Origin: Candidatus Levyibacteriota bacterium
GTDB lineage: Bacteria; Patescibacteriota; Microgenomatia; Levybacterales; UBA12049
Reading direction: 5' to 3'
DNA length: 64,000 nt
NCBI GenBank assembly: GCA_963790825.1
Contig: CAWBPM010000002.1
Span: 618,815 to 682,814, forward strand
In this document: positions 2,617 to 39,310 of the stretch, piece by piece
Position numbering within the stretch: the stretch's first letter is position 1
Layout of the letters: the number at the start of each line of letters is the position of its first letter
Notes under the pieces: model-generated
What the model saw: the letters and a program-made list of their open reading frames with translations, nothing else
Database searches by the model: none
Told to the model about the DNA's origin: nothing
Program-made: the position numbers and the translations under genes

Positions 2617-4305
2617 CTATTTTTGTTTTAATACAATTGACACTCCGATCGGTGTTCCTGTCAGTTCTTTACATATTTTTTGTAATACTTCCATAGTTTG
2701 CGTGTGACTGAGACGTTCTTTATGAAACTGATATGAGGTTTCAATAATAAGATCTTTTCTATCAAAGCTTTTTATGCTGCAGCCTCTCAGCACTCCGGCG
2801 GTAGTATGATTATGACCCTTCATCGAGTTAATAATGCATTTCCAAAATAGAGTAAGCCATTCCGGTGTAATTTCCCCTTCAGCAGAGTAGTTAAGTAGAT
2901 TGACTGACGCGATATCTACGATGCCGTCTCCATCCGTTTTTTGCTCGATTTCTCCGTAAAGGGCTTTGATTTTGGCAATATTGTTTACCTTTTTACGAAG
3001 TATCGCAACTGATACGTCATTTTCTCCGGAAGTTTTAGTAGCAGTTTTTTCATCTTTTTCCGAAGCAATCACGCTAATCTTTTTTTCATCTTTTTTTTCG
3101 CCTTCTATTTTTTCAAAAGCTTTACACCAGTCAATCAGCGCAATCTCAAGTGGCAATTGCAAAATCGGGGAATTTTTCATATCATTAGAAGCGAAACTGA
3201 AAAGACGAATGAGCTGTTTTATTTCCTCAATACCAAGCTTTATTTCATCTTTTTCAGTTTTTTCATCGGTTGTCACACCAACTTTTTGCAAGATTAGTAG
3301 ATGAAGTTCCTCCACCAATTCACCGGTAAAATATTTCATATCCATACCCTGGCTCACAAGTGTCTCAATCAGCTTTAGTCCTTCTGTTAACTTCCGCTTT
3401 TCAAGTATCCGAAGCATTGCGCTTAAATGAGATGCTATACCTATGATTTGATAGGTTTTATCTATAAATTCTTTTGTAATTTTCTTTCCGTTAGAAAGCG
3501 CCGTAACCTCTTCAAGGAGCTTTGTCGCATCACGAAATCCACCATCTCCCAGGTGAGCAATTTCCAATAATGCTTCTTCATCGATCTCGATTTTTTCCCC
3601 TTTTATAATCCGTTTCAAGGAACGGACGAGTTCCTGATCCGTCGCTTTCGTGAAAACAATCGTGAAACAACGGGAAAGAATCGTTGGAGGAACCTTATGC
3701 TGCTCTGTGGTGCAAAGAATAAACATTGCATGCTGGGGCGGCTCCTCAAGCGTTTTCAGAAGTGCGTTAAATGCTTCACTTGTTAACATGTGCACCTCGT
3801 CAATAATATATATCTTCTTTTTTGCCGAGATTGGAGATAAACGAATTTTATCTTTTAAGTCGCGTATTTCGTCAATTCCGCGGTTAGAAGCTGCGTCAAT
3901 TTCCAAAACGTCCAGGTTCGTGCCATTGGTGATCGAGACACATTGTATACACTTATTGCATGGTTCGATTTGATAAATTTCTTTATCTTCTAATTTTTGA
4001 TTTTTTATCTGTGTTTTTGACTTTTGATCCTTAACTTTTGACCTCCCTACACAATTAACAACCTTGGCAATGATTCGCGCTGAAGAAGTTTTCCCGAGTC
4101 CCTTGGGACCGGCAAAAAGAAACGCGTGGGGGACGGAATCCCACTCAGTGGGATGAGTCCGCCTGTCTTTCGACCCTGAGTTCAAGACCGAAGGGCCTGG
4201 CAGGGGTGGGGGATTTTTGGCTAGGACTGAAAAAAGCGTCTCCCGAACGTGCTTATTATCCAGTTCCTCAATTGTTTGGCCTCGATATTTTCTGTAGAAA
4301 ACCAT
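2617..4305 (-). CDS. dnaX: DNA polymerase III subunit tau/gamma
   Basis: P-loop GPKGLGKTS, Zn-module Cys cluster (CNKCIQC), DEVHML Walker B, LKTLEEPP, sensor SRC, and a C-terminal tau-specific region. Carries the conserved -1 frameshift heptamer (see separate feature). Confidence 0.9.
   Translation of the reverse strand: MVFYRKYRGQTIEELDNKHVRETLFSVLAKNPPPLPGPSVLNSGSKDRRTHPTEWDSVPHAFLFAGPKGLGKTSSARIIAKVVNCVGRSKVKDQKSKTQIKNQKLEDKEIYQIEPCNKCIQCVSITNGTNLDVLEIDAASNRGIDEIRDLKDKIRLSPISAKKKIYIIDEVHMLTSEAFNALLKTLEEPPQHAMFILCTTEQHKVPPTILSRCFTIVFTKATDQELVRSLKRIIKGEKIEIDEEALLEIAHLGDGGFRDATKLLEEVTALSNGKKITKEFIDKTYQIIGIASHLSAMLRILEKRKLTEGLKLIETLVSQGMDMKYFTGELVEELHLLILQKVGVTTDEKTEKDEIKLGIEEIKQLIRLFSFASNDMKNSPILQLPLEIALIDWCKAFEKIEGEKKDEKKISVIASEKDEKTATKTSGENDVSVAILRKKVNNIAKIKALYGEIEQKTDGDGIVDIASVNLLNYSAEGEITPEWLTLFWKCIINSMKGHNHTTAGVLRGCSIKSFDRKDLIIETSYQFHKERLSHTQTMEVLQKICKELTGTPIGVSIVLKQK
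3079..3099 (-). other. dnaX programmed -1 ribosomal frameshift signal: tandem slippery heptamers A_AAA_AAA and A_AAA_AAG
   Basis: The coding strand reads GGC GAA AAA AAA GAT GAA AAA AAG ATT AGC (codons 402-411). A -1 shift at the first site gives AGA TGA. A -1 shift at the second gives GAU UAG. Both terminate within 2 codons, which would produce a gamma-like product of about 405-410 aa, as in E. coli dnaX (A AAA AAG). Confidence 0.6.
4128..4215 (-). other. GC-rich, hairpin-forming in-frame insertion in the dnaX N-terminus (encodes PPPLPGPSVLNSGSKDRRTHPTEWDSVP)
   Basis: About 88 nt of markedly higher GC than the flanking sequence, inserted between the conserved LAKN and HAFLFAGPKGLGKTS segments. 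Contains a perfect ATCCCAC-TCA-GTGGGAT hairpin and G-runs. There is no counterpart in canonical DnaX. Confidence 0.5.
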
Positions 4306-4315
4306 AAAAAAAATT

Positions 4316-4376
4316 AGAATCTAGAATTATAAATTCTAAACTAATTATGAATTCTGAATTTTGAATTCTAGATTCT
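4316..4376. repeat. TRAATTY heptamer / inverted-repeat element (AGAATCTAGAATT ... AATTCTAGATTCT, 13-bp perfect IR with 35-nt spacer containing TGAATTC TGAATTT TGAATTC)
   Basis: Lies between the ybeY stop and the dnaX start. Related elements are at 5903-5999, 7556-7700, 30183-30300 and 50790-50850. Confidence 0.7.
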
Positions 4377-4761
4377 ACTCGTGGTGCATGCCCAGTAAAT
4401 GTAATAATCCATGTTTTACCAGCTCATCAATTTTATCGTCAACCAACACTTCTTCCGCCGCAGCCTCCCTGATTATTTGCGGATATGCCAAAACAATATC
4501 CCCTAACCTGGTAATACCCTCCGGAAGTATTGCTTCTCCGCCTTCGTTAATTGGAAATGATAAAACGTTTGTTGTTTTATCTTTATCTCGGTATTTTTTG
4601 TTCAAAGATCGCATTTTCCTATCTCCCACAATTGCCACGGATACTTCAGTGGGACTACTAATATTATTTTCTCCAATTATTTCCTGAACAGCTTGTTTTA
4701 TCCGTTTTCTATTTACGCTATACCGACTTTCAACAAAGATAAGAACACGAATACTGCTCAT
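4375..4761 (-). CDS. ybeY: rRNA maturation endoribonuclease YbeY
   Basis: 128 aa with a C-terminal HGLLHLLGMHHE metal-binding motif (H..H.....H) typical of YbeY/UPF0054. Confidence 0.85.
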   Translation of the reverse strand: MSSIRVLIFVESRYSVNRKRIKQAVQEIIGENNISSPTEVSVAIVGDRKMRSLNKKYRDKDKTTNVLSFPINEGGEAILPEGITRLGDIVLAYPQIIREAAAEEVLVDDKIDELVKHGLLHLLGMHHE

Positions 4762-37405: not shown

Positions 37406-39310
37406 CTAGTACAGTACTCTCAATCTAATCGTTCCCGAAACTCTGTGCAAATTTTCCATCACTTGTTTATCATATACTCTATCCACATCGGTTATGGCGT
37501 AACCGACTGTTTCATTGGTTTTCAAGTGCTGGCTCAAAATATTAATTTTCTGCTCTGCAAATACCGTATTTATCTTCGCCAAAACACCAGGAACATTACG
37601 ATGGATATGAAGTAAACGATGCGCATGGCGTAGAGGTGAAACATGGATTTGCGGCATAGTAACCGACAATGTCGTATCACCGGCGTTAATGTATTCCAGC
37701 AGTCGATGTGAAACAAAAGTTCCAATATTTTCCTGTGCTTCCTTAGTACTGCCACCAACGTGAGGAGTCAGGATGACATTCGGAAGTCCTTGCAAAGGAG
37801 AAACAAAAGGTTCCGATTTCCCTTTCGGCTCCAGAGGAAATACATCAATTGCCGCTCCCCCGACTTTTCCTGACCTCAGAGCAGCAACCAGCGCATTAAT
37901 TTCCACCACAAATCCCCGGCTGAGATTTAAAAATAACACGCCGCCTTGCATTTGTTTAAACTCTTTTTCACCAATCAGGTTTCTGTTTTTCGGGTCGCCG
38001 TCAACATGAATCGTCACAATATCCGAATGTTTCAAAACTTCTGCCATTGACGAACAGGCTATAGCATTCCCCAAAGCCAGCTTTTCCGACGTGTTATAAA
38101 ACAATACTTTCATACCTAACGATTCGGCGAGAACTGATAGTTGCGAGCCGATATTTCCATAGCCGATAATCCCCAAGGTCTTGCCTCTGACTTCCATACT
38201 CCCCAGTTCTGATTTATCCCAGATACCCAGGTGTAAATTCGCACTTTTTGGGAACGTTCCCCGAGCGAGCGCAATAATCTCACCTATTGTCAACTCAACA
38301 ACACTTCTGGTATTACTAAACGGCGCATTAAAAACTGCAATTCCTCTCTCCGCTGTAGAGGATAAATCAATCTGATCGGTGCCGATACAAAATGCGCCAA
38401 TTGCCATGAGATGTTTCGCCTTTTCAAGCAGGTTCTTTGTAATTTTGCTTCGTGAGCGGATCCCGAGAATTGACACATCTGAAATTTTCTCTGCTAATTC
38501 TGTCTCGGTTAAACTTCGTTCAAAGAATTCCACAGCAAAACCTTCTCTTTCAAAAGCAGTGATTGCTTTTTGGTTCACTTTTTCTAGTAACAATACCAGC
38601 ATCCGGTTTTTCGGATATGATAATGCTTGAGGCAGATGATAAATATATAAAAATTCGTCAAAATTCGGAATCGCATAATCTGCTTTGATAGTCACTGCTT
38701 CGCGAAAAACGTTTTCAGTAAAAGCGATAAATTTCGCTTGAGGCAACTTTTTTTTTATTTCATAATCTGTATACCCATCACCGATAATAAATATATCTCC
38801 CTTTAACCCTAACGACTTGACCGCTTTCACTTTCCCGCCTTTTTGGCTGAGTGGATTTTTCTTATCTATTCCCAGTGCGTTCCCTTTTTTGTCAAACAAA
38901 AATTGGTTCGCAAGGACGTGTTCTTTGGGTATCCCGAATTCCGAAACAATCGGTAAAATAAACTCCCTAAATCCCCCGGAGATCAGGTAAATCTGTTTTT
39001 TATACGCTTTGAAAAACTGCTTATTCCGCGCAATCGATGGCGTTACTTTTTTCTTAAGTCGCTTGGCAACAATTGCCAAATCTGCTTGTGTAATTGGTAA
39101 TAGTTTCAGGCGTTTTTTCAAACTTTCCGCAAAAGATATTTTTCCTTCCATCCCTAAATCGGTAATCTCTTTAATTTTTTCAAGAATTTTTTCCCGATTG
39201 GGGTTCTTTTGCAAAACCACAGCAGCCAATTCTTCGAGACCCTCACATTGAATAAATGTGCTGTCAAAATCGATAATAAAGTAACTGTTCTGTTGTGTTT
39301 CTGCCTGCAT
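37406..39310 (-). CDS. fused phosphoserine phosphatase (HAD, N-terminal) / D-3-phosphoglycerate dehydrogenase (C-terminal, with ACT domain)
   Basis: N-terminal IIDFDSTFI (HAD motif I DxD) and IGDGYTDYE. From about residue 240, a 2-hydroxyacid dehydrogenase region with GKTLGIIGYGNIGSQL NAD-binding and catalytic HVGGST, followed by a C-terminal ACT-like domain. Confidence 0.75.
   Translation of the reverse strand: MQAETQQNSYFIIDFDSTFIQCEGLEELAAVVLQKNPNREKILEKIKEITDLGMEGKISFAESLKKRLKLLPITQADLAIVAKRLKKKVTPSIARNKQFFKAYKKQIYLISGGFREFILPIVSEFGIPKEHVLANQFLFDKKGNALGIDKKNPLSQKGGKVKAVKSLGLKGDIFIIGDGYTDYEIKKKLPQAKFIAFTENVFREAVTIKADYAIPNFDEFLYIYHLPQALSYPKNRMLVLLLEKVNQKAITAFEREGFAVEFFERSLTETELAEKISDVSILGIRSRSKITKNLLEKAKHLMAIGAFCIGTDQIDLSSTAERGIAVFNAPFSNTRSVVELTIGEIIALARGTFPKSANLHLGIWDKSELGSMEVRGKTLGIIGYGNIGSQLSVLAESLGMKVLFYNTSEKLALGNAIACSSMAEVLKHSDIVTIHVDGDPKNRNLIGEKEFKQMQGGVLFLNLSRGFVVEINALVAALRSGKVGGAAIDVFPLEPKGKSEPFVSPLQGLPNVILTPHVGGSTKEAQENIGTFVSHRLLEYINAGDTTLSVTMPQIHVSPLRHAHRLLHIHRNVPGVLAKINTVFAEQKINILSQHLKTNETVGYAITDVDRVYDKQVMENLHRVSGTIRLRVLY

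Follow-up and report, generated by a model that had tools for sequence, protein, structure and literature searches.

Tandem slippery A-runs in the dnaX linker of a Candidatus Levyibacteriota bacterium: probably a by-product of composition rather than a programmed gamma/tau signal

The window analyzed here, a 64,000-nucleotide stretch of a Candidatus Levyibacteriota bacterium contig (CAWBPM010000002.1), carries a dnaX gene encoding the tau subunit of DNA polymerase III, in whose Lys-rich linker two slippery heptanucleotides lie in tandem. That slippage within dnaX can yield both gamma and tau was already recognized in 1990, and organisms have reached this dual coding by several routes; a preliminary description of this sequence had proposed that the two sites are a further instance. 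We consider it probable (roughly 0.6) that the two A-runs are instead a composition-driven by-product, with only low-level, unprogrammed gamma-like truncation, and not a programmed signal. This assessment is based on the sequence anatomy of the sites, the neutrality of such runs at the genome level, stimulators that are not strong, and sites that are not conserved. Programmed recoding of any kind is, in our estimate, unlikely.

Under the by-product reading, the A-runs would have arisen in the Lys/Glu-rich linker that joins the clamp-loader module to the C-terminal domain of tau, a segment that evolves fast and defies alignment. Because of the codon usage in the window (Lys 79% AAA, Glu 72% GAA, Asp 70% GAT), Glu-Lys-Lys is almost automatically written as GAA AAA AAR, and under that same usage Lys-Lys-Asp-Glu automatically brings a TGA into the -1 frame. 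RNA polymerase (at the A8 run) and ribosomes (at A_AAA_AAG and A_AAA_AAA) would slip here at a low, unprogrammed rate, presumably about one to a few percent; the slipped products would end within 1–7 codons as harmless gamma-like DnaX proteins of 406–412 a.a, and tau would stay the functional product.

Anatomy of the slip sites

Codons 402–411 of dnaX (3102-3073, minus strand) read GGC GAA AAA AAA GAT GAA AAA AAG ATT AGC, with both heptamers in the X_XXY_YYZ phase. The gene, its two modules, and the elements around the sites are as follows, with coordinates as positions in the window:

2617..4305, minus strand: dnaX (DNA polymerase III tau), 562 a.a, an uninterrupted zero-frame open reading frame (ORF) with its ATG at 4305
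3127..4137, minus strand: N-terminal module common to gamma and tau (domains I–III), matched by TIGR02397 dnaX_nterm (312 bits, a.a 57–393)
2626..2883, minus strand: tau-specific C-terminal domain (a.a 475–560), a sub-threshold match to PF20964 DnaX_C (E = 0.019), missing from any slip product
3091..3098, minus strand: run of eight A with slippery heptamer 1, A_AAA_AAA (3097-3091), codons 403–405
3079..3086, minus strand: run of seven A (3086-3080) plus G with slippery heptamer 2, A_AAA_AAG (3085-3079), codons 407–409
3086..3088, minus strand: -1-frame TGA, one codon (AGA) past site 1
3074..3076, minus strand: -1-frame TAG, one codon (GAT) past site 2, which requires ATT followed by AGY (P ~0.18 from codon usage)
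3069..3071, minus strand: +1-frame TGA, seven codons past site 1 and three past site 2
3081-3095 and 3045-3059, minus strand: AAAAAGATGAAAAAA, a 15-nt sequence present as two direct copies at a distance of 12 codons

The preliminary description had reported two tandem heptamers, each with a -1-frame stop within two codons, placed after domain III at about residue 405 of 562 and yielding a gamma-like slip product of ~46 kDa. Each of these points was borne out: both heptamers are in phase and are followed by one codon and then the stop, domain III ends at ~a.a 399 (the dnaX_nterm match at a.a 393), and the computed -1 products are 406 a.a (46.0 kDa) and 410 a.a (46.4 kDa), compared to 63.3 kDa for tau. 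The slip sites fall 10–16 residues beyond the N-terminal module common to both subunits and lie 338 and 342 codons past Walker A; a -1 product would be gamma-like, without the DnaX_C domain at the tau C-terminus. The preliminary description did not mention the +1 frame, which is read from an mRNA one A shorter (ATG AAA AAA AGA TTA GCG TGA).

The TGA after site 1 is nearly forced, given that Asp-Glu is coded GAT GAA (GAT usage 0.70). Beyond the 15-nt repeat, an 11-nt period runs across 3077-3097 and spans both slip sites (TRF). Together, the AAAAAGATGAAAAAA repeat and this period suggest a low-complexity, internally repeated EK(K)D linker that may drift via replication slippage. An origin of the two sites by tandem duplication was considered and rejected, as duplication of an 11-nt unit would break the reading frame and a 12-nt copy needs three substitutions.

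Expectation within the genome and among relatives

Within-genome statistics were drawn from 62 mechanically called ORFs (54 kb of the window, whose G+C content is ~40%), with starts taken as the first ATG, GTG, or TTG, and depletion was assessed via a synonymous-codon shuffle that keeps every protein sequence. A/T runs of at least 7 nt number 60 in the 64 kb, and the ORFs hold 27 in-frame copies of A_AAA_AAR. One of these 27 occurs elsewhere in dnaX itself, at codon 161, in the conserved SAKKK motif of the essential ATPase core. In-frame A_AAA_AAG showed no depletion (9 observed vs. 7.4 expected), and neither sense-strand A7 runs (25 vs. 25.4) nor A8 runs (12, the dnaX run included, vs. 11.8) departed from expectation, whereas A9 runs (1 vs. 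5.0) and runs of A10 or longer (0 vs. 4.2) were depleted. These counts point to selection against slippage-prone runs from 9 nt upward, with A7, A8, and A_AAA_AAG neutral in this genome; a ~9-nt threshold against slippage-prone runs was described in many bacteria by Baranov et al. The dnaX runs (A8 and A7) are thus just under the length at which selection acts and, given that A_AAA_AAG, A7, and A8 are not avoided here, they apparently slip little or do little harm in this genome. The sole sense-strand A9 lies at 38748-38756, at codon 185 of a gene at 37406..39310 (minus strand), and has overlapping A_AAA_AAA and A_AAA_AAG heptamers inside it.

The amino acid composition of the linker accounts for its Lys-Lys count. 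With 21% Lys, the linker holds two Lys-Lys pairs against 1.7 expected from a composition shuffle. Taking the peptide EKKDEKKIS and the codon usage as given, the full pattern of heptamer and stop is expected with P ~0.40 at site 1, ~0.10 at site 2, and ~0.46 for at least one of the two.

Relatives gave little sign of the sites. The closest proteins among 5.8 billion are 54–59% identical, with an unalignable linker; a contig search with the single protein returned only distant dnaX genes (28–48% identity), and a metagenome search with an alignment, which relied on very general patterns, returned mostly other phyla. We counted Lys-Lys in the linkers of 104 homologues (48–59% identity) with both anchor motifs and found it in 26, compared to 22.2 expected from composition (P = 0.19). 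The other 78 are without linker Lys-Lys and therefore cannot carry A_AAA_AAR there. The DNA of nine relatives showed no alignable cassette; eight of the nine have linker Lys-Lys, five of the 11 such pairs are slippery, which matches codon usage, and the -1 stops of these heptamers are 2, 4, 5, 10, and 14 codons away, like the background. Conservation of the cassette was thus not seen in the 104 homologues or in the DNA of nine relatives, of which the closest are 54–59% identical. Homologues lacking A-runs at this position had been named in the preliminary description as grounds for dismissing the frameshift; this is largely what the 78 of 104 show, and the programmed reading is weakened by it.

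The same held on a wider scale. In a set of 70 non-redundant dnaX genes spanning many phyla, 18 heptamers lay in linkers, compared to 21.1 expected from the usage of each gene; slippery Lys-Lys coding was not enriched in linkers relative to elsewhere (Fisher P = 0.22), and tight -1 stops were not significantly enriched in linkers either (8/18 vs. 8/32, P = 0.21). Long A-runs behaved differently when 75 non-redundant dnaX genes were examined, with linker enrichments of 1.7-fold for A7, 2.4-fold for A8, and 8-fold for runs from A9 upward. The four linker tracts in this set that reach at least A9 all lie 329–345 codons past Walker A, with stops nearby:

L005 (labelled as an Actinomycetota metagenome-assembled genome): A10 then TCTGA, codon 331 past Walker A
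L043 (metagenome contig): A10 then TCTGA, codon 331 past Walker A
L007/L009/L010 (Zixibacteria): A10 in L007, codon 345 past Walker A
L105 (same protein family as the DnaX of the window): A9, codon 329 past Walker A

The stops near these tracts follow after 1–4 codons in the -1 frame and 3–7 codons in the +1 frame, and by their sequence the tracts look like unannotated transcriptional-slippage sites of the Thermus type.

Stimulatory elements and routes to a gamma-like product

Two elements flank the slip sites at distances relevant to frameshifting:

3099..3104, minus strand: weak Shine-Dalgarno-like AAGGCG, 13–15 nt upstream of heptamer 2 and 1–2 nt upstream of heptamer 1
3014..3074, minus strand: imperfect hairpin beginning 4 nt past heptamer 2, with an 8-bp core, seven more pairs, and a 26-nt A-rich loop

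With a canonical anti-Shine-Dalgarno sequence assumed, as the 16S rRNA lies outside the window, the AAGGCG duplex amounts to -2.4 kcal/mol, the 37th percentile of the coding background, and AAGGCG is all that was found where an upstream stimulator of the E. coli type would be placed (~10–14 nt 5′ of the heptamer). The hairpin reaches -15.3 kcal/mol with z = -3.8 against its own shuffles, yet it falls only in the 9th–12th percentile of the coding windows of the genome; a stable stem-loop of the E. coli type would be expected 5–8 nt 3′ of the heptamer. The preliminary description had seen no obvious downstream stem-loop, which is essentially correct in that the structure is not obvious, although one does exist, weak at -15.3 kcal/mol and with its 26-nt loop. 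As a positive control, the dnaX gene of E. coli K-12 was passed through the same scripts, which recovered the AGGGAG duplex (-7.2 kcal/mol, 10 nt upstream), the -1 stop after one codon, and a compact stem-loop of -19.7 kcal/mol from 6 nt downstream, with the 65-nt window at -28.7 kcal/mol in the first percentile of its own gene. An estimate of Shine-Dalgarno usage in the window (53 of the 62 ORFs without a motif) was discarded as unreliable, the ORF starts being crude.

The first way in which a programmed signal could operate is -1 ribosomal frameshifting as in E. coli, mainly at A_AAA_AAG (site 2) and less at A_AAA_AAA (site 1), assisted by AAGGCG and the hairpin and giving useful amounts of a 406- or 410-a.a gamma. 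In its favor are the phasing of the heptamers with their immediate -1 stops and their position just past the module shared by gamma and tau. The naked A_AAA_AAG heptamer is, moreover, shift-prone with E. coli components, with ~14–16% frameshifting in vitro. We nevertheless judge this route improbable. Its stimulators are ordinary for the genome and far weaker than those of E. coli, and most relatives are without a linker heptamer. A_AAA_AAG is markedly under-represented in E. coli, unlike here, where it is not avoided even in the ATPase core of dnaX (codon 161), which speaks against strong shifting at this heptamer in the organism. In addition, the E. coli type involves a single tRNA-Lys (UUU anticodon) that decodes AAG weakly, and scans for tRNA genes came back empty for both the 64-kb window and 16 related loci. 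Rfam likewise returned no family at the gathering threshold in the window, and we noted that 64 kb without RNA genes is long for a small genome.

The second is programmed transcriptional slippage as in Thermus, where RNA polymerase would stutter on the T8/T7 template to produce mRNAs with one A more or less, and thereby gamma-like products within 1–7 codons. Consistent with this, stops are close in both non-zero frames, as in T. thermophilus, and the sites share their position with the A9–A10 tracts of other dnaX genes, including L105 (A9) of the same family. Such slippage has also been proposed for two-ORF dnaX genes that carry A7 and A8 tracts. Against it, the runs are only 8 and 7 nt long, in a genome where A7 and A8 are neutral and A9 or longer is depleted, and below the literature threshold of typically 9 (A9 in Thermus); 12 sense A8 runs occur across the ORFs of the window in ordinary genes, and the runs are unconserved in relatives. 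We regard this second route as quite improbable.

The two routes could coexist, and both would feed the same outcome, since all alternative frames stop within 1–7 codons. A stimulator-poor recoding that makes gamma at the two tandem sites (A8 with A_AAA_AAA, then A_AAA_AAG), combining slippage by RNA polymerase with -1 slippage by the ribosome, we hold to be rather unlikely.

Several observations weigh against regarding the sites as a by-product. Among the 27 heptamers, only the two in the dnaX linker run into the -1 stop after a single codon; the background probability of such a short distance (k ≤ 1) is 0.14 per site and ~0.02 jointly, and the full pattern at both sites has P ~0.04 given the peptide EKKDEKKIS and codon usage, such that two tight tandem sites are unlikely by chance (P ~0.02–0.04). 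The +1 frame also closes nearby, and both sites (338 and 342) fall inside the 329–345 hotspot of A9–A10 tracts. The Shine-Dalgarno-like element and the hairpin (z = -3.8) are spaced about as expected on either side of site 2. Even without stimulators, two tandem sites could yield a non-trivial amount of gamma-like protein if the tRNA-Lys is E. coli-like. Lastly, the closest relative, at only 54–59% identity, is too far away for a test of conservation at the relevant distance.

In weighing these points, we started from a prior, drawn from the literature and the sampled genes, that roughly 5% of lineages use dnaX recoding, and took the two immediate stops, at the expected position, to favor a programmed signal by a likelihood ratio between a few-fold and ten-fold. 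This was counted down by the neutral genome statistics, by runs 1–2 bases below the threshold of the genome itself, by the ordinary stimulators, and by the absence of the sites in most relatives. What the preliminary description saw as a reproduction of the E. coli gamma/tau frameshift therefore stands for heptamer, stop, and position, while the strong Shine-Dalgarno and the conservation of that system are lacking and the hairpin is weaker than its stem-loop. Similarly, any slip would indeed give a gamma-like protein of 46 kDa, whereas programmed production of such a subunit is unsupported by stimulators, by the neutrality of the runs, or by relatives.

The dnaX gene, its significance, and comparison with known systems

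The identification of the gene as dnaX (tau) is secure on its clamp-loader AAA+ module, domain III, tau C-terminal domain, and dnaX-ybaB synteny. Pfam matches comprise DNA_pol3_delta2, AAA, the ATPase lid, and gamma/tau domain III (gamma3; PF12169), and the full-length gamma/tau NCBIfam models span a.a 57–561. The PF20964 domain is annotated for several DnaX homologues, and in an alignment of 40 homologues W483, W488, N499, H500, and other residues in the C-terminal ~90 residues are invariant. Named homologues are labelled 'Patescibacteria group', 'Candidatus Levybacteria', and 'Microgenomates group'. YbeY is encoded upstream and YbaB downstream, and relatives keep the rpsU(S21)-ybeY-dnaX-ybaB synteny.

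These features also bear on whether homopolymer errors in assembly or sequencing made the runs or hid a real frameshift, such that the gene is split or its runs have other lengths. Errors are frequent in homopolymers, and the sequence belongs to a metagenome-assembled genome, but nothing observed points directly to an error; the zero frame continues without interruption through the C-terminal domain, which can be aligned with each of the 39 homologues, invariant residues included, and an identical 562-a.a protein is found in the NCBI, ENA, and Logan sources. We consider such an artefact very improbable.

We made several further observations on the gene. DnaX residues 30–58 (window ~4132-4218, minus strand) form a 25–30-residue insertion, NPPPLPGPSVLNSGSKDRRTHPTEWDSVP, directly before Walker A, which is missing in most of the 39 homologues; its DNA is locally GC-rich, with a TCCCAC/GTGGGA inverted repeat, and the insertion occurs in one copy in the window and has an ordinary fold (z = -1.0). 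Residues 86–115 (~3960-4060, minus strand) are a Lys/Gln-rich spacer within the zinc-binding module C85 ... C116-x2-C119-x2-C122, and the length of this spacer is highly variable among homologues (0 to ~45 residues). The spacer that separates ybeY (4375..4761) from dnaX, at 4306-4380 (minus strand), is AT-rich and contains a near-perfect inverted repeat, TAGAATCTAGAATT ... AATTCTAGATTCTA, which folds as a long hairpin (-22.5 kcal/mol, z = -4.9); a U8 tract comes next and adjoins the dnaX start codon at 4305. By its sequence, this hairpin and U8 looks like a terminator or attenuator. No Shine-Dalgarno is visible before dnaX, and the corresponding spacer in relatives is only ~10–145 nt long.

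Were the recoding real, it would be the first such event proposed for the Patescibacteria (candidate phyla radiation, CPR), a radiation of reduced genomes, and an intermediate between the A9 solution of Thermus and the E. coli solution of a heptamer with stimulators; in the literature searched, we found no report linking dnaX recoding to Patescibacteria or CPR. A functional signal would extend gamma/tau dual coding to the CPR, as a 'minimal' tandem variant without strong stimulators, and would bear on how often gamma was reinvented and on the composition of the clamp loader in ultra-small cells. Should the sites be incidental, which we favor, they serve as a caution: Lys-rich DnaX linkers in AT-rich genomes would give E. 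coli-like heptamers in ~1/8 of relatives or fewer, given that 26/104 linkers have Lys-Lys and about half of these are slippery. With incidental heptamers this common, a motif plus a stop alone is no evidence of recoding. The comparison of A7/A8 and heptamer counts with synonymous shuffles, together with the break at A9, offers a cheap calibration for such calls.

A close parallel in form is the -1 frameshift in the dnaX genes of E. coli, Salmonella, Vibrio, and Neisseria, which likewise has A_AAA_AAG in the X_XXY_YYZ phase, one -1 codon and then a stop, at a site past domain III, with a product lacking the tau C-terminal domains. It differs in its stimulators (AGGGAG at -7.2 kcal/mol and a compact stem-loop at -19.7 kcal/mol there; AAGGCG at -2.4 kcal/mol and a hairpin with a 26-nt loop at -15.3 kcal/mol here) and in its conservation across genera, whereas the signal here is absent from most relatives. 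The dnaX gene of the window further differs in having two tandem heptamers, ~45 codons nearer to Walker A (338/342 vs. 384), and its heptamer is not avoided in the ORFs of the window.

In T. thermophilus, transcriptional slippage occurs on an A9 tract with stops in both non-zero frames. The dnaX gene of the window resembles this type, along with L005, L043, L007, and L105, in its single tau ORF, its poly-A tract where the linker begins, and the nearby stops in both alternative frames. No linker tract here attains the 9 nt or more of the Thermus type, as its A8 and A7 runs are one or two bases short both of the Thermus A9 and of the length at which selection acts in this genome. In the two-ORF dnaX genes of Chlorobi and others (Antonov et al. 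2013), where tau requires recoding at A7–A10, a poly-A tract, including cases of A7 and A8, likewise lies at the gamma/tau junction. Their logic is the reverse, however, given that the zero frame stops after gamma and recoding leads to tau, while here the zero frame encodes the full tau and recoding would lead to gamma.

In Caulobacter crescentus, gamma is derived from tau by proteolysis, which shows that a gamma-like DnaX can be needed, and made without a conserved recoding signal; the mechanism there is post-translational and has no bearing from the sequence here. Finally, unprogrammed slippage, as at the A-AAA-AAA of Gateway attB1 and at in-frame heptamers of E. coli genes, shares with the present sites a Lys-Lys tract without stimulators or conservation, at a frequency that follows from composition. 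It differs in one respect, in that the truncated by-product of the dnaX gene described here matches a known functional isoform exactly.

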